Of a DNA stretch of 32,000 nt, positions 23,608 to 31,095 are shown one piece after another. The notes beneath the pieces were generated by a model, which saw nothing but the letters and a program-made list of their open reading frames with translations, did not search any database and was not told the origin of the DNA. Numbering within the stretch: the first letter of the stretch is position 1; each line of letters begins with the position of its first letter. This stretch comes from Candidatus Heimdallarchaeota archaeon (GTDB lineage Archaea; Asgardarchaeota; Heimdallarchaeia; Heimdallarchaeales; Kariarchaeaceae). The DNA is taken from positions 180,001 to 212,000 of the forward strand of contig JASBSB010000006.1 of NCBI GenBank assembly GCA_030149205.1. The letters run 5' to 3'. The translations under genes and the position numbers were made by a program.

Positions 23608-25197
23608 ATGAAACAATTTTCGAAAATCAATCGAGTTGTTCATATAAGAGTACTTATAAAGAAAAGAATAGTGTCCGATGAGAGTATTGTCTCTAAATTA
23701 ATTTTCGCTGGTTTAGACGCTGCGGGTAAAACTACAATTTACAAAGCCACCATGCTTGAGATGCCAGCGAAAGATTTGGAGAAATCAAAACCAACCCGGG
23801 GAATAGACCGTCATGTCTCAGATTTTATGGACTATGATTTCAGTGTATGGGATTTAGGAGGTCAGAAAACCTACCGAGAGACGTATTTATCTAGACCGGA
23901 GGTCTTCAATTCAACAAAGGCTTTGATTTTCATCGTGGATATTCAAGACACAGATCGTTTTGAAGAGGCTTACGCTTATTATGTTGACATTATGAATATC
24001 CTTGTTAACGTTGATCCGATTCCAAAAGTCTATGTCTTCTTTCATAAGTTTGATCCAGATAAAGCAAGCAGGTTAAGAGCACATTTTTTCAAGGCAACAA
24101 AGCTATTTAGACAGGCAGATACTATTACAGGCACCAAATTCACAGGATTTGCCACTTCAATTTATTCTAACAGCATACAAAAAGCGGTAAAGCGGGTACT
24201 TTGGGAAAACCTCGAGGGCTTCCAACCATCATTAGAATTTAAGAGACCAGAGAGTCAGGAGCAAGAAAACAAGGTTCCTGTGATTTCTAAGGGATCAACT
24301 AAGAAACCAGGTTTATCAAAATCCCAAATTCCCAAAGCACCAATAGTCCAACCAGTCCAAAAGGCTAAGGATGATCCTGAGGAGAAACCGCAACTGGCAA
24401 CCTCATCAATACCGAAATCAAGTATGCCTGCAACTCAAACATCAGAGGGGACACAAGTATCAAGAGACAGTTCTGTCCTTGAACCATTGGAATCTAAAAG
24501 TTCACAAGCGGCAGAAACAAAAGCAATTCAAAGCGAAACTAAAACTCCATTAAAAGAAACATTCAGTGAAATTAAATCCCCTCCTGAAGAGACCACCTCA
24601 CAGGTTACAAAAGAGGTTTCAGCAGAAGATGAAGTCATTTCACACAAGACATCGTTTGAAGAGGGAAAAACATATGAGGCAATTCCAAACCTTTCAGACC
24701 TTTCAACTCATATAGTTGATAAACTCTCGAACGTAATTAATAAGCGAATGCATGAGAGTCCAGAAATTCTGGCACTGGCTATTGTTGGAACTGACGGAAA
24801 AGTTCCCCTGGCCGTAACTAAGAATGAACTCGAAAAACAGAAGATTGATATTTTACAAAATGTGGTTAAGGAGTTAAACCCCAAACAATTTTTCTCGGAC
24901 ATTGGTGATATTGAGTATAGGGGACTTGGACATCTGACTATAGGAGATTTTGACATCTACTTCGCCAAGCTTTCTCCCGAGTATGCAATTGCAATCTTAG
25001 CGAATGATGTATCAACACCGATGTTAGAAAATTCACAGAGAATTGTTAAAACTATAAGACAGGGACTGGGTATGGTTGAGAATGATGAACCAGTTGAAGA
25101 TGAACCTAAAACAAAGGATGAAAAAGCTGATTTGATTGGAGACCTTCGAAACAGACTCAAGAGAATTGGTTCCTTGAACAGTATGAATGATAAATGA
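23608..25197 (+). CDS. Small GTPase (Arf/Rag-like) + low-complexity linker + roadblock/LAMTOR-like domain (start possibly GTG 23671)
   Basis: G1 GLDAAGKT, G2 PTRG, G3 WDLGGQ, G4 HKFD, G5 TSIY; S/T/E/K/P-rich linker at aa ~204-363; roadblock pattern at aa ~364-488 (EILALAIVGTDGKVPL...DFDIYFAKLSPEYAIAILA). Confidence 0.88.
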   Translation: MKQFSKINRVVHIRVLIKKRIVSDESIVSKLIFAGLDAAGKTTIYKATMLEMPAKDLEKSKPTRGIDRHVSDFMDYDFSVWDLGGQKTYRETYLSRPEVFNSTKALIFIVDIQDTDRFEEAYAYYVDIMNILVNVDPIPKVYVFFHKFDPDKASRLRAHFFKATKLFRQADTITGTKFTGFATSIYSNSIQKAVKRVLWENLEGFQPSLEFKRPESQEQENKVPVISKGSTKKPGLSKSQIPKAPIVQPVQKAKDDPEEKPQLATSSIPKSSMPATQTSEGTQVSRDSSVLEPLESKSSQAAETKAIQSETKTPLKETFSEIKSPPEETTSQVTKEVSAEDEVISHKTSFEEGKTYEAIPNLSDLSTHIVDKLSNVINKRMHESPEILALAIVGTDGKVPLAVTKNELEKQKIDILQNVVKELNPKQFFSDIGDIEYRGLGHLTIGDFDIYFAKLSPEYAIAILANDVSTPMLENSQRIVKTIRQGLGMVENDEPVEDEPKTKDEKADLIGDLRNRLKRIGSLNSMNDK

Positions 25198-25246: not shown

Positions 25247-25795
25247 TTACTCAAATGGGGGTAAACCTAACTGAGATTGCCAATTTTTTAGGAGAAATCT
25301 AAGGTGATTGAGTAACCAAACTTCCTCTTCCAAAAGGTTTGGATTTTGTTTATTTTCATTGGCATTAACTATTGCTTCCTGCAATATTTTTTTCATCCTG
25401 TTTCTCATAATCTTATTAAACGAGCCTTCAATACTAGTTAACTTCCTAATTGCCATTTTGTTATTCTCTGAACTCAGCCTTTTGATTTCTGCACGGGTTC
25501 GTTTGATAAACAGGCTGGAAGGAAGCCTGGCTAACTTTTTTTCACGTCCCTCTTCATGAGCATATTGAGCCATGGTTCTATAGTTTATTTCTTCATCACT
25601 ATCAAACTCAACTAGGTCTCTCTCAAGAAGTATCTCAGCAATCCAATATGGAACCTTAGCACTTTGCCCCTCAGGGATATGGACAGAGATGTTATCGATA
25701 TCAAAGGTTTCAAATTTTTTAATGCAGATTACCTGAACTGGTTCTTCCCCGAAATCAAAGTCTATACGGTTAAGTTCTTCAACAAAATCTATCAA
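25247..25795 (-). CDS. gins23: GINS complex subunit, Gins23 (Psf2/Psf3-like, B-A domain order)
   Basis: N-terminal beta domain with KVPYWIAEILLERDLV followed by a helical domain; directly downstream of mcm, a known archaeal arrangement. Confidence 0.85.
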   Translation of the reverse strand: MIDFVEELNRIDFDFGEEPVQVICIKKFETFDIDNISVHIPEGQSAKVPYWIAEILLERDLVEFDSDEEINYRTMAQYAHEEGREKKLARLPSSLFIKRTRAEIKRLSSENNKMAIRKLTSIEGSFNKIMRNRMKKILQEAIVNANENKQNPNLLEEEVWLLNHLRFLLKNWQSQLGLPPFE

Positions 25796-25870: not shown

Positions 25871-28800
25871 TTATAATTTGCTCAATGTCCCATTATTTGG
25901 TCTATACAAACCCCCTTGTTTGACTAAATCACGGATTGCTTTTTCAACAAATTCAGAAGACAGTCCGGCTTGTTCTGCCTCAGCATACACTTCACTATCC
26001 TTAAAAGGTCCAGATGAGATGTTTTGAAGATGATCAATGATTTGCATTAATCTTGAAATCTTTGACCTTCTTACCGAAGTAATACCGCTTGCAAAGGCAT
26101 CATAATCCAATTGACCAGATTCTGGATCAATAGCTATTTGAGTGAGGCTATATTTTATGAGGTCTATTGCTTTCTGAGCATCCTGTTTTGTAACTGTGTC
26201 TCGTAGTGCGATCCTTGCTCTTGCCTCTGCTAATCTCACTATCCCTTCTAGCTGCCTTGCAGTAACAGGGATTGAACCGTTTCCCTCAACGTTACCTGAG
26301 TTTCTTAAGTTAACATAGAAATCTTGGATCGTGTCTACAGATTCTCTGGAAAGCTTTGGATGAGATTTTTGTTTTGCAAAAGCAATATATTTTCGTAGTT
26401 TATCAAGGTCAATTGGTGGATTTTCAATGAGATTTGAATCATAGTTGAAATGCAAGTTTAAGATATGTTCTGCTTTTGATTGGTCTTCTTTCTCATCTGG
26501 AAGGTCTCGAAGCGTAAAAATAAGATCGAAACGCGACATAATTGCAGGGGACAAATTTACATTTTCAACAAAGGTTTGATTTGGGTTATATCTTCCTAAT
26601 TTGGGGTTTGCTGCTGCAAGTACCCCTGTTCGAGAATTTAAAGTTGCGACGATACCGGCCTTAGCTATACTTATGGTGTTATGACAGATTAAAGAACCAG
26701 ACAGAAAGTTTTGTTGTGGTTCCACTGTTATATCATAAACATACTCTGCGTTAGAAATTTGAGAACTTTCTATTGTTTGGACATCAACAACCCTTGCCCA
26801 TCCGAGCTGTAAAAGTTCACGAATCTCTTTGATTTCAGATTGTATATACACTAATACCTCACTATATTTTGAAATTAGCTGTTGGTTTTGAGATTTTAAA
26901 TCAGAATAAACCAGAATCTCTTCAAGGGAATTAAGACTGGATTGTAACTTGGACTTGGACGATTGGTTTAACTTTATTGGAACAAATTCATTATCCAGTA
27001 CCATTTGAAGCTCTTTAACCCTTAACGAAAAAAATTCAGGTAATGAGTCAGAATAACTGTTATCCCCATAAAGAGGAACATAGGTTGATATGGGAGTTTC
27101 TTTTGAATTTATTAGGTCAATTGATTGAGTGTTTAGATTAAAATAAAATAGGGGATGGTCATCTGTAACAACAAAAGAAATTCCATTTGAGAGCTTAATC
27201 AAAATAAACTGTTGCGGCCCTTTATGTCTTACCAACCTCATAATTTTTGAAGTTTGTTTTACTTTATCACCTAGGTCAAAGGAGTCTGTTTCAAGATATA
27301 AACCATCAACCCTTGATAAGTCGAGAATTTCACAGTTTGGAGCTGGTTCGATTTTCGTTTTATTTTCTGCAAAATATTTTTCTACAAGCTCTCCCAGCTT
27401 CCATTCAACGCCATTAATTTTTACTGGGTGATCAAAATGATAAGATTGTTGTTCCATTGCCTCATGTATAGCCGATCGATCATTGTCACTCATTTTATCA
27501 AATTCATCTATCAGACATACACCTTTATCAGCAAGAACTAACGCACCTGCCTCTAAAGTTAAATCACCTGTATCAGGGTCTCGAATCACAGCTGCCGTAT
27601 TATGGATTAAAAACCCATTTCCGATAAAATTATGTGAATCTTTTACGGTCAAATCATATACAAAATCGAATTCAGACCTTACATAACTTACATCTGTAAT
27701 CTTACTCCATCCCAGAGTGCTCTTTTTAAGATTGTCAATAAAATTTAACTGGTTTACAATATAGGAATGTTTTGCCTCCAACCTTCTTAATAAGTCTTTG
27801 AGAAACACTACAGTCGTAGTTGGTAAAAGTAGTTCCATGTTACGAATTATATTTTGAAGATGAGAGTAGCTAATTTTTATATTTGTGTCCTGATTTGGGT
27901 CGCCAAACAACAGTTGAGCAAGTTCTTTTTCAGTAACTGATAGCAATAATGACACCTTTCTTAAACTAGAGAAATCTACAAGTTTATGAAGCAAAGTTTG
28001 GATTTCTATCTCGGTTAATTTCGAGGATAAATTTTGGAGCAATGGAGTTTCACTTGTGACACTTTCGAGGTATTGGAGCTTAAGCTCCTGTTTCAACCCT
28101 TCAGATTTATCAAGGACATATTTTTGAATTTGTGGGTCTCCATTTACTGTCGCAATGACATCCCCTCGGCTTAAACTTTTAGATTTCATCCAGACAAATC
28201 CATTAATTGGGTCAAATGTGAAAATTGAGGTTTCTGGTGTCATTCTAACTGAGTTACCGAAAGATTCTGTGACCTGTACAAGAAAAGGTGGAGCCTTAAT
28301 TTTCCAAACATTTTCAATGAGCCCCTCTTTTTGTTTTAAGTTCGCTGAATGAGTAGTTGCATTATTTCCTATTAATTCCATTGACTGTTCAAGAGGTGAC
28401 TCCAAACCAACCTTTTTACTTAAGTGAAAAACAGGTTCAATTAAATCTTTTATTTTTATTAGATTCGAATTTATGGTGATTTCTGTATCTCCAGCAACAC
28501 AAAGCCCTGCTGCACTCGATCCTTTCCCAGATGTGTAAACTCCACGTGGTGCGATCTTATGAACAGCTTTGAGTAACTGGGATTTTGCCACCCCAGGGTC
28601 ACCAACCAATAAGATATTAGTTTGTCCCCTTGTTTTAAATCCATTCGGATGAACTTTGTCCACCCCTCCAAAGAGGAAAAACATAATTGCCTCTTTCTCC
28701 TTTTCTAGCCCCTTGATCTGAGGGGCAAGTGATTGAATAACCATATCATAAATATCTGGGGATTGAGAGAGTTCCAAAAACTCATTCTCCTCCTCCAAGG

Positions 28801-29629
28801 TTATCTCTGTTAGATCTGTATCTTTGTTCATCGGTTCAACAAACACTGCATCAACCCAAAGATCCAGAATAGCTTGTTTACCCTTCTTAAATCCTTCTGC
28901 ATTTCTCGTTTTTACTATTCCAGTTAGAATAGCCCGATCTCCTGGTCTTACTATGTCAACTAAATCATCCATCAATCTACAGGAAATTGATTTGGGGCTA
29001 GCACCAGAAACCAACTCCTCTGGTCTCTCTTGAAGAGTTATGGACTGCCAATCAATTAAGTTGGAGTCAGCAATGGAGAGAAAAAAATCTTTACTCCTAC
29101 ATGTTGGCTCACTACATCTTCTGGGAGTGGAATAGTTCCCTTGCACAAGAGGAACAAGTACAGAATGTTCTGGATTTTCCCTGCAAATAAAATGTGCAGT
29201 AACCATCAGTGGTTTAATTTCAGAGGTTCTAACCACTATACCCTCAATAACTTTTAATGCACCAATCTGGTTACTTCGAATATTTCTTAACTCAATCTTT
29301 GATGGTACGTTCGTAAATCTTGCGTGAAATTTGTCTCGATTAAAGAGTGTAATTTCTTGGAAATATTCAAAATCTTCTTGTTTGATTTGATTCTCAAGAG
29401 CAAGAGTCGCTGCCTCAATTGTCTCTTCGGGGAGTTCAATTAAAGCAGAGCTTAATCCCAGCTCATGTGTTGCATCCATGAGATATAGATCATTAAAATC
29501 TATGACTAGGCTTCTTTCCCCATCTTTAATCATTCTTGTAATTTCATCGTCATATCTATAACTCCCATCTTCGGCTTGGAAATTCTTGAAGAACTCCAAA
29601 AACCCGTTCATCAAATCTTGGTCAAGCAT
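25871..29629 (-). CDS. mcm: MCM replicative helicase precursor with two inteins (about 695 aa after splicing)
   Basis: QERPEE, Walker A GDPGVAKS, Walker B IDEFDKM, Arg finger SRFD, TARQLE, C-terminal winged helix. 1252-301-256=695 aa. Zn finger C-x5-H-x16-C-x4-C. Confidence 0.97.
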   Translation of the reverse strand: MLDQDLMNGFLEFFKNFQAEDGSYRYDDEITRMIKDGERSLVIDFNDLYLMDATHELGLSSALIELPEETIEAATLALENQIKQEDFEYFQEITLFNRDKFHARFTNVPSKIELRNIRSNQIGALKVIEGIVVRTSEIKPLMVTAHFICRENPEHSVLVPLVQGNYSTPRRCSEPTCRSKDFFLSIADSNLIDWQSITLQERPEELVSGASPKSISCRLMDDLVDIVRPGDRAILTGIVKTRNAEGFKKGKQAILDLWVDAVFVEPMNKDTDLTEITLEEENEFLELSQSPDIYDMVIQSLAPQIKGLEKEKEAIMFFLFGGVDKVHPNGFKTRGQTNILLVGDPGVAKSQLLKAVHKIAPRGVYTSGKGSSAAGLCVAGDTEITINSNLIKIKDLIEPVFHLSKKVGLESPLEQSMELIGNNATTHSANLKQKEGLIENVWKIKAPPFLVQVTESFGNSVRMTPETSIFTFDPINGFVWMKSKSLSRGDVIATVNGDPQIQKYVLDKSEGLKQELKLQYLESVTSETPLLQNLSSKLTEIEIQTLLHKLVDFSSLRKVSLLLSVTEKELAQLLFGDPNQDTNIKISYSHLQNIIRNMELLLPTTTVVFLKDLLRRLEAKHSYIVNQLNFIDNLKKSTLGWSKITDVSYVRSEFDFVYDLTVKDSHNFIGNGFLIHNTAAVIRDPDTGDLTLEAGALVLADKGVCLIDEFDKMSDNDRSAIHEAMEQQSYHFDHPVKINGVEWKLGELVEKYFAENKTKIEPAPNCEILDLSRVDGLYLETDSFDLGDKVKQTSKIMRLVRHKGPQQFILIKLSNGISFVVTDDHPLFYFNLNTQSIDLINSKETPISTYVPLYGDNSYSDSLPEFFSLRVKELQMVLDNEFVPIKLNQSSKSKLQSSLNSLEEILVYSDLKSQNQQLISKYSEVLVYIQSEIKEIRELLQLGWARVVDVQTIESSQISNAEYVYDITVEPQQNFLSGSLICHNTISIAKAGIVATLNSRTGVLAAANPKLGRYNPNQTFVENVNLSPAIMSRFDLIFTLRDLPDEKEDQSKAEHILNLHFNYDSNLIENPPIDLDKLRKYIAFAKQKSHPKLSRESVDTIQDFYVNLRNSGNVEGNGSIPVTARQLEGIVRLAEARARIALRDTVTKQDAQKAIDLIKYSLTQIAIDPESGQLDYDAFASGITSVRRSKISRLMQIIDHLQNISSGPFKDSEVYAEAEQAGLSSEFVEKAIRDLVKQGGLYRPNNGTLSKL
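26678..27445 (-). mobile_element. Intein 2 in MCM (256 aa, aa 729-984), Ser1-initiated, no LAGLIDADG motif
   Basis: Interrupts HEAMEQQ|TISIAKAG. Starts SYHFDH, block B VTDDHP, block F VYDITV, ends CHN with +1 Thr. Confidence 0.92.
27599..28501 (-). mobile_element. Intein 1 in MCM (301 aa, aa 377-677), no LAGLIDADG motif
   Basis: Interrupts SSAAGL|TAAV. Starts CVAGDT, block F VYDLTV, ends IHN with +1 Thr. Confidence 0.93.
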
Positions 29630-29887: not shown

Positions 29888-30298
29888 GTGAATTCGACCT
29901 GTCAATATCATCCTGACATAGAAGCATCCACCAATTGCCAAAAATGTAAATCTCCAATTTGTGAAATTGATCTACAAACTGAAGATCAAACGTTAATAAT
30001 TTATGATAACGGGTATTTTGGACAGAAGATACCACCAAAAGACATCTGCATTCCTTGTTACCAAGCACAAAATACACCGAGTTTTAATCCTATTCTTTTG
30101 CTAAGCACAATTTTAGGTCTCTCTGTGGCTCTTGTACCTTTTTTTCAATTTGGTGGTGATGGATTTTTGTATTATTTTTGGATATTGATGTCCTCGATAA
30201 TACTTTTTCCTGTTATTATTATGTTTTCTTTGAAATTAACGATTTATAATTCTAAAAAGAAATACAAAACTACCTTGATTTATGGATCTGGAAGCTGA
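29888..30298 (+). CDS. B-box-like Zn-finger protein with two TM helices (paralog A)
   Basis: C5-x2-H8-x8-C17-x2-C20-x4-C25-x2-D28-x25-C54-x2-C57, followed by two hydrophobic helices. Confidence 0.75.
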   Translation: MNSTCQYHPDIEASTNCQKCKSPICEIDLQTEDQTLIIYDNGYFGQKIPPKDICIPCYQAQNTPSFNPILLLSTILGLSVALVPFFQFGGDGFLYYFWILMSSIILFPVIIMFSLKLTIYNSKKKYKTTLIYGSGS

Positions 30299-30516: not shown

Positions 30517-31095
30517 ATGAGCAACACGACAGTTTGTGCTTATCATCCAGACAGATATGCAGTCAATATCTGTGAACGTTGCAGAAGTCCAATCTGTGCA
30601 AATGATCTCAGAGTATATCGAAAAACGAGAACAGAATGGGTGGGTGAAGTTGCAACTGAGAGTGTAGAAAGTTTTAATTATTGTCTCCCCTGTTTTGCTG
30701 ACCAAACTACTCAGGATGTGAACCCTTCAGGAGTACTAATTATAGCTAGTGTAATTATTGTATTATTTCTAGCCTTTTTTCAAATTGCCTCAAGAGATTT
30801 TGCCGGGTTTTTTATTTTGTTTGCTCTTGCTGCAGTTATTATCACTCTAGTGGGCTATTTAAACAAAAAAAGTAAAGCTGAAAAAGCTCAATCAGAACTT
30901 ATGATGTTTCAACAGGGTCTTGAGAGCTATGACAAAGGCAGTAAAAGAAATTCAAATACACATTTAACCTCTAGCCATAATAAGTTGGAGATTAATTGCT
31001 TCCAGTGTGGACAGATTTTGCAAAAAGGAGATAGATTCTGTAACAACTGTGGAGATTCCACTGAAGATGAGAAAATGGTGTTTGGAGAATTCTAA
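30517..31095 (+). CDS. B-box-like Zn-finger protein with two TM helices and C-terminal zinc ribbon (paralog B)
   Basis: Same ligand spacing as paralog A (C7,H10,C19,C22,C27,D30,C56,C59), two TM helices, then CFQCG...FCNNCG. Confidence 0.82.
   Translation: MSNTTVCAYHPDRYAVNICERCRSPICANDLRVYRKTRTEWVGEVATESVESFNYCLPCFADQTTQDVNPSGVLIIASVIIVLFLAFFQIASRDFAGFFILFALAAVIITLVGYLNKKSKAEKAQSELMMFQQGLESYDKGSKRNSNTHLTSSHNKLEINCFQCGQILQKGDRFCNNCGDSTEDEKMVFGEF

Follow-up and report, generated by a model that had tools for sequence, protein, structure and literature searches.

Many Asgard archaeal GTPases that carry an Arf annotation are nearest to Rags and are fused to a roadblock or a longin domain (Tran et al. 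2024, PMC10933270), and the eukaryotic Rags fall inside the Asgard RagGtr clade, apart from ArfR (Vargova et al., 10.1101/2024.02.28.582541). Solved structures exist for two Rag-like GTPases of Lokiarchaeota, identified by the titles of their entries as LokiRagO (8YL2) and LokiRagM (8ZLA). A second point of reference is the MglA-MglB pair. MglB consists of a roadblock, a disordered spacer and a D/E-rich C-terminal helix, and this helix binds a basic pocket of MglA at alpha5, beta2 and beta2-beta3 and promotes nucleotide exchange (PMC6785124). The GAP interface seen between MglA and MglB is not formed by the roadblocks of Rags, and Rag-type GTPases are predicted to be open to MglB-type allosteric control (PMC11016934).

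The protein described here is encoded on the forward strand of the window, by which we mean the whole 32,000-nucleotide stretch of DNA that was analysed. It belongs to the Asgard RagGtr class of GTPase-roadblock proteins, which is already known, in a variant form with a tether, an end helix, roadblock-plus-helix paralogues and a Ragulator-like gene cluster. With LokiRagO (8YL2), LokiRagM (8ZLA/9M28) and the GTPase-RB class as a whole it shares the G-domain clade, the motifs, the C-terminal roadblock and the Arf-like annotation that these proteins routinely receive. In LokiRagO-type proteins (~300-320 aa), however, the roadblock follows directly upon alpha5, whereas in the present family a linker of 49-360 aa intervenes, the roadblock belongs to a distinct subfamily, and the chain ends in a conserved helix. 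The eukaryotic proteins RagA/B, RagC/D and Gtr1/Gtr2 are likewise similar in fold, domain order, G4 HKxD and G5 TSI, and Gtr1 is the top structural match (Z 24.6); at the same time they form an obligate heterodimer, whereas here there is no second Rag paralogue in the genome and a long linker and an extra tail are present. Our literature search, outside which most subscription papers lay, returned no description of the long unconserved linker, of the conserved end helix and its stand-alone roadblock paralogues, or of the clustering with LAMTOR-like genes in Gerdarchaeales.

Gene extent and class of the G domain

The features of the locus are as follows, with residues numbered throughout in the 529-aa frame that begins at ATG 23608.

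23671-25197, + strand: whole gene, 508 aa from GTG (orthologue starts)
23641-23648, + strand: possible archaeal TATA box, ~27 nt upstream of the GTG in an AT-rich region (sequence)
23689-24213, + strand: RagGtr-type G domain, residues 28-202, G1-G5 intact (Pfam, PDB matches, structure, invariant columns)
24220-24681, + strand: disordered linker, residues 205-358 (model, conservation)
24691-25071, + strand: roadblock, residues 362-488, helix-strand-strand-helix-strand-strand-strand-helix (predicted structure)
25072-25125, + strand: flexible spacer, as a rule acidic; orthologues have 11-35 aa (model, conservation)
25126-25185, + strand: conserved C-terminal amphipathic helix (conservation 0.75, complex prediction)

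A single intact open reading frame spans 23608-25197 on the + strand. The initial annotation had closed the gene at 25071, which is the end of the roadblock; the frame runs on for a further 126 nt, or 41 residues, to 25197, so that the earlier end leaves out both the spacer, which is acidic, and the terminal helix, which is conserved. At the other end, translation almost certainly begins at GTG 23671 rather than at ATG 23608. All but one of 35 orthologues (34) have 4-17 residues ahead of G1, where the present protein would have 13 if it started at the GTG but 34 if it started at the ATG, and the upstream extension is not helical in the model, observations on which we reject the ATG. A GTG start occupies the equivalent place in several orthologues, and the extension itself, with a hydrophobic moment of 0.19, is missing from orthologues. 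The basic N-terminal helix whose existence was thought to hang on the choice of start is not to be found from either codon, residues 1-28 being non-helical in the model. The position of the possible TATA box would be compatible with a leaderless transcript.

The closest named relatives are proteins of Kariarchaeaceae and Heimdallarchaeota, and from these, and from a gene set with actin, ESCRT-III, Vps4 and many small GTPases, the host would be an Asgard archaeon of Kariarchaeaceae type. Two genes on the opposite strand converge on this one: a probable GINS subunit, by our reading of its sequence and with no Pfam match (25247-25795, -), and an MCM helicase with intein insertions recognized by Pfam (25871-29629, -). 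Beyond them lie tandem genes for small B-box-like zinc finger membrane proteins (29888-30298 and 30517-31095, +), of which the latter also has a zinc ribbon at its C terminus. The neighbours of the gene vary among Kariarchaeaceae loci, and adjacency to GINS-like and MCM genes is limited to close relatives.

The initial annotation had regarded the protein as an Arf/Rag hybrid, with Arf-like G1 and G3 motifs and Rag-like G4 and G5. The motifs lie exactly where they had been placed, with GLDAAGKT (G1) at 23710-23733, WDLGGQ (G3) at 23848-23865, HKFD (G4) at 24043-24054 and TSIY (G5) at 24154-24165, and switch-I Thr63 and switch-II Gln86 are invariant columns in the G domain alignment. Their Arf-like look is nothing special, being ordinary in the Asgard RagGtr clade: among 75 other Asgard Rag-like sequences, GLDxAGK[TS] occurs in 58, the exact G1 in 30, WDLGGQ in 65 and HKxD in 59. 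G4 HKxD and the TSI-aromatic form of G5 are Rag-type, as alignment to Gtr2 and LokiRagM shows. GTP binding and switching are to be expected from the intact motifs and from the family.

Profile, sequence, structure and phylogeny agree on a Rag assignment. In Pfam the Gtr1_RagA profile scores 89.7 bits and is matched across positions 1-172, versus 66.4 bits for Arf over positions 16-110 of 174 only, a profile that Arf-type control proteins cover from 10-174 and 5-172. By sequence the nearest solved structures are 8YL2 and 8ZLA, then Gtr2, Gtr1 and RagA, and then Arfs; by structure the top 14 rows are all Rag/Gtr, with Z from 24.6 (Gtr1) to 20.0, and Arf, Arl and ArfR score ~19-20. Against RagD the G domain gives Z 21.4, with an rmsd of 2.4 over 170 residues. 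In a tree that contained no eukaryotic rows, and whose Arf side consisted of two Arf-type references and one long-branch protein from the same genome, the family groups with LokiRagO-type proteins (including P0055) with support of 96/98, and the branch that separates the two together from Arf-type, MglA-like and Rab-like GTPases is supported at 97/98. Arf and the Asgard ArfR/AArf proteins (8OUK, 8OUM; PMC11914678) do resemble the protein in the look of G1 and G3 and in overall fold (Z ~19), whereas its G4 and G5 are Rag-type (HKFD rather than NKxD at G4), the Arf profile is covered only in part, the tree places it on a separate branch, and there is no N-terminal amphipathic helix. Together with the generic character of G1 and G3 in Asgard RagGtr proteins, these results rule out the hybrid, and we are highly confident that the protein is an Asgard RagGtr GTPase of a Heimdallarchaeia-centred subfamily. 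Thus, of the proposal that a Rag-like architecture had been built on an Arf-like G domain, the architecture stands, with a true roadblock, and the Arf-like G domain falls; nor is the protein any more informative about the Arf-Rag split than the rest of the Asgard RagGtr proteins.

The roadblock and its tether

The C-terminal domain had been taken for a roadblock fold, and so it is: the model has roadblock topology at a pLDDT of ~90. The initial annotation had itself named an already characterised architecture as an outcome that would count against it, and this applies in part, since the architecture belongs to a described class (PMC10933270; solved as 8YL2 and 8ZLA/9M28). The structure matches are to the roadblock of LokiRagO (Z 11.2, rmsd 2.6, 106 residues aligned), to MglB (Z 11.1) and to LAMTOR2/3. 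Pfam did not detect a roadblock domain, and sequence searches of PDB and Pfam with the roadblock and tail returned nothing meaningful; a match to LolA at E 0.1 was dismissed as chance. By analogy with solved roadblock and Rag proteins, the domain would form dimers, either homodimers or pairs with stand-alone roadblock proteins, and serve as a docking platform. We consider roadblock-mediated dimerisation quite probable, and a dimerisation or docking role for the domain is likely on the same analogy.

Between the two domains, the low-complexity linker that had been put at ~160 aa measures ~154 aa, is rich in S, E, K, P and T, and is modelled with pLDDT <50 over residues 206-356. Its length ranges from 49 to 190 aa in 39 close orthologues and reaches ~360 aa in P0138, its proline content runs from 4 to 24% across orthologues, and its column conservation is 0.25, against 0.75 for the G domain, 0.71 for the roadblock and 0.75 for the terminal helix. 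The linker thus has the character of a tether whose sequence is hardly constrained. As a passive tether, long and variable, it may uncouple the G domain and roadblock, which in Rags are held in one fixed pose. In eukaryotic Rags the roadblock packs directly after alpha5; here 154 aa intervene, and the full-length AF2 model (pTM 0.62), which brings the domains together, differs from the Rag pose by a two-domain rmsd of 8-11 A.

Such a tether could also allow a roadblock dimer to reach the switch face of the G domain in the MglA-MglB geometry and to speed hydrolysis in cis, as the initial annotation had suggested. The linker is long enough and the pose is physically possible, the roadblock is equally close to MglB and to Rag roadblocks, and the full-length model does put the domains together in a pose other than that of Rags. 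The G domain, however, is Rag-type rather than MglA-type, and Rags lack the MglA-MglB interface (PMC11016934); moreover, Gerdarchaeales members without the switch-II Gln keep both roadblock and tail. We therefore regard a GAP in cis as quite unlikely, while noting that it can coexist with the explanation that we prefer for the tail, in which the terminal helix acts on the protein's own G domain.

The terminal helix and its possible partners

The tail consensus, D-L-[VIM]-x-[DE]-L-[RK]-x-[RK]-L, corresponds to residues 508-517, and the modelled helix extends over 509-526. It is as well conserved as the G domain; L513 is invariant, and the charge class at 512, 514 and 516 is kept in 36-37 of 37 rows. 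The tail has a net charge of +1, a mean hydrophobic moment of 0.45, 1% aromatics and two conserved acidic positions. A tail profile matched no other protein in the same genome, its matches in 151 Asgard genomes were confined to the family of the window gene bar three weak ones, and an Atlas feature search with the tail gave nothing meaningful (best 0.78). The same tail also terminates stand-alone roadblock paralogues that have no G domain, several of which share a genome with the full protein.

Other relatives vary the architecture in other ways. One roadblock paralogue without a G domain (P0140, 269 aa) has a helical N-terminal domain in its place, and others (P0130, P0132, P0134) carry long, repeat-containing disordered tails. 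In the sister G-domain paralogues L186, L187 and P0048, the roadblock and tail are swapped for an unrelated helical region. Further afield, Asgard Rag-like proteins of ~412 aa with an extra N-terminal domain (P0060, P0064, P0068 and relatives) end in a different conserved basic amphipathic helix, and terminal helices may be recurrent in Asgard Rag-like GTPases, to judge from these sequences.

Overall, we favour a reading in which the protein is a Rag-like switch that dimerises through its roadblock and carries its own regulatory helix at the C terminus, in the style of MglB; it is our best reading, and we place its chances a little below even. The terminal helix would fold back onto the G domain, either in cis or across the dimer, a step for which the support is weak, and once docked it would regulate nucleotide exchange allosterically, much as the Myxococcus MglB helix does on MglA. 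The stand-alone roadblock-plus-helix paralogues would then act in trans. The likeness to MglB lies in the succession of a roadblock (Z 11.1), a flexible spacer of ~15-20 aa and a single terminal helix. MglB is, by contrast, a separate protein that acts on an MglA-type GTPase and bears a D/E-rich helix, whereas the present module shares one chain with a Rag-type G domain and its tail has net +1.

Beyond this analogy, the reading draws on structure prediction. When a complex of two G domains, two roadblocks and two tails was predicted from alignments of our own, with only the tail scored and no interface output, the tail score was 0.45, in the weak band, against 0.00 for the best of three controls, which included a replaced G domain; of 80 solved pairs 58 reached the mark applied to this score, as did 2 of 110 mismatched pairs, but only 7 of the 80 and both of the mismatches did so at 0.60 or below. 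Agreement between runs was 61% of contacts or better, with a tail pLDDT of at least 57. In the full-length AF2 model the tail reaches a pLDDT of ~62, versus ~51 when modelled with the roadblock alone, a model of which the complex score is not independent. A possible receptor site is suggested by alpha5, where R196 and E200 are present in 88% and 76% of tail-bearing members, versus 7% and 14% of tail-less Rag-like proteins; our guess, from these residue patterns, is that they might pair with D512 and R516 of the tail. Paralogues that have lost the roadblock and tail still have Lys at 196 in three of four cases and Glu200 in two of four, and because these tail-less sisters partly keep the charges, the alpha5 signal may reflect ancestry and not co-evolution. 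That the tail acts on its own G domain is a tentative proposal, one to which we give slightly less than an even chance.

A different kind of partner is suggested by the hydrophobic register of the tail, which is the same as that of the local ESCRT-III tails. The tail would then be an ESCRT-III-type MIM1 that recruits an MIT-domain protein, either Vps4 or an MIT-like/longin fusion, and so connects a Rag-like switch to membrane remodelling. The MIM1 consensus is (D/E)xxLxxRLxxL(K/R). A core LxxRLxx[LI] does stand at the chain end in 24 of 37 tails, versus 0.2% of random 30-mers, while the full consensus occurs in none of the 37; the third hydrophobic residue is missing from Gerdarchaeales tails, and the conserved N-terminal D-L-[VIM] of the tail falls outside MIM1. 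Possible partners are at hand, as the genome encodes Vps4, two ESCRT-III proteins and an MIT-like/longin protein, in addition to actin and many small GTPases, but there is no synteny with ESCRT genes, which lie 17 kb away on one contig only. The MIT-like/longin protein (L185:193-900, G000:C1:133092-133802; 236 aa) looks like an MIT-like three-helix domain followed by a longin domain, with no Pfam match at E 0.01 and a weak MIT match at E 0.04 in the genome search.

The charges also fit poorly. In VPS4B, an MIT Glu pairs with the MIM1 Arg. The local ESCRT-III tails have Glu or Gln where the tail has Arg or Lys, and the MIT domain of Heimdallarchaeia Vps4 has Lys where VPS4B has Glu (8 of 8 extracted), which suggests a swapped charge pair and a poor fit for an Arg-bearing tail. 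We consider the MIM1 reading very unlikely. Both ESCRT-III paralogues of the window's genome end in a helix with Glu or Gln at the MIM1 Arg position, and across Heimdallarchaeia (L001, L005, L006 = G000:C8:40453-45822; L118, L122, L130-L148) Glu or Gln at that site in ESCRT-III tails is found alongside the Lys of Vps4 MIT. A charge-swapped MIT-MIM1 pair in Heimdallarchaeia is thus possible from the sequences.

The helix might instead be an actin-binding motif, akin to a WH2 or central helix, with a proline-rich linker that binds profilin and a GTPase that controls actin. It is basic and amphipathic, and in the window copy ends in LKRI; Gerdarchaeales tails resemble what we take to be the pattern of a WASH central helix; the linker can hold as much proline as noted above, and the genome has one actin gene. 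Yet an LKKT-type motif is present in only 4 of 37 tails, the tail profile has no Pfam WH2 or PDB match, and proline runs do not exceed 4 residues and are missing from many orthologues, including the window protein, all of which makes this reading highly improbable. To our knowledge no Rag protein is directly coupled to ESCRT-III/Vps4 or to actin. Were the tail an MIT-interacting (or actin-binding) motif, the sole Rag-type GTPase of Kariarchaeaceae would be coupled directly to ESCRT-III/Vps4 remodelling (or to actin), an outcome that we judge improbable.

Finally, the helix could bind membrane, in place of anchoring through Ragulator. A terminal, amphipathic and slightly basic helix would suit that role, but the scarcity of aromatics, the two conserved acids and the conservation at the level of individual residues point to a protein partner, and we hold membrane binding to be extremely unlikely.

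Distribution and a Gerdarchaeales gene cluster

Among 83 Heimdallarchaeia genomes, the roadblock-plus-tail module is present in 10 of 11 genomes of the window's family, in 1 of 1 and 3 of 3 genomes of two small related families, and in 11 of 12 Gerdarchaeales (f7); it was not found in three other Heimdallarchaeia families (0 of 31, 0 of 22 and 0 of 2 genomes). One member lies outside Heimdallarchaeia (L178, G105:C51), and there the gene has on one side a gene that fuses a longin to an Arf-type GTPase and on the other a fusion gene with a Rab-like GTPase. A G-domain profile search of the window's own genome, which is 93.5% complete, found one Rag-type gene, and of the family's 10 positive genomes, 8 likewise have just one.

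In Gerdarchaeales the gene has consistent company. At all seven loci (L168, L173-L177, L179), which are related to one another and so count as roughly a single observation, it lies within ~6 kb of LAMTOR3-like (MAPKK1_Int) and LAMTOR5-like roadblock genes and adjoins a longin-looking gene, and at six of the seven a DENN-like gene with an SMCR8_C match, or a homologue of it, is nearby. G3 lacks the catalytic Gln in these members. In the roadblock-DENN operon known so far, the GTPase is not a Rag, as noted by Liu et al. (10.1101/2020.10.19.343400). The Gerdarchaeales cluster, judged by its gene content, is a candidate proto-Ragulator with a Rag-type GTPase. The window's genome also encodes a stand-alone LAMTOR3/MglB-like roadblock (L184:208-720, G000:C8:247907-248422), with an acidic C-terminal helix of its own in the hydrophobic register of the tail, which is kept in Gerdarchaeales.

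This cluster raises the possibility that the roadblock forms complexes with LAMTOR3-like and LAMTOR5-like roadblocks and with longin/DENN proteins, as in a Rag/Ragulator-like docking module, and that the tail binds another subunit or an effector, or oligomerises. Both LAMTOR-like roadblocks have orthologues in the window's genome, and the tail is retained on stand-alone roadblock paralogues; since these have no G domain, an external partner explains the tail equally well. As far as the roadblock is concerned this possibility is compatible with regulation of the G domain by its own tail, and the two differ for the tail alone. On the other side, the cluster is absent in Kariarchaeaceae, where neighbours are variable, the seven Gerdarchaeales loci are not independent, the longin label is a sequence reading with no Pfam match, and the predicted docking of the tail is lost when the G domain is replaced. 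We think this docking-module reading, taken as a whole, unlikely. Considering the tail by itself, we rank its own G domain first, with a likelihood just under one half; next comes a partner in a Ragulator-like complex, and then, further down, MIM1 and actin.

If the tail indeed works in the manner of MglB, a fused roadblock, as in Rags, and helix-driven exchange, as in MglA/MglB, would be combined in a single chain, and the protein would offer a test of whether Rag-type G domains share this allosteric site, as has been predicted in print. Most Asgard lineages have many Rag-like paralogues, and Kariarchaeaceae usually have one, which makes this GTPase a clean target. The Gerdarchaeales cluster, for its part, supplies concrete candidates for a proto-Ragulator.
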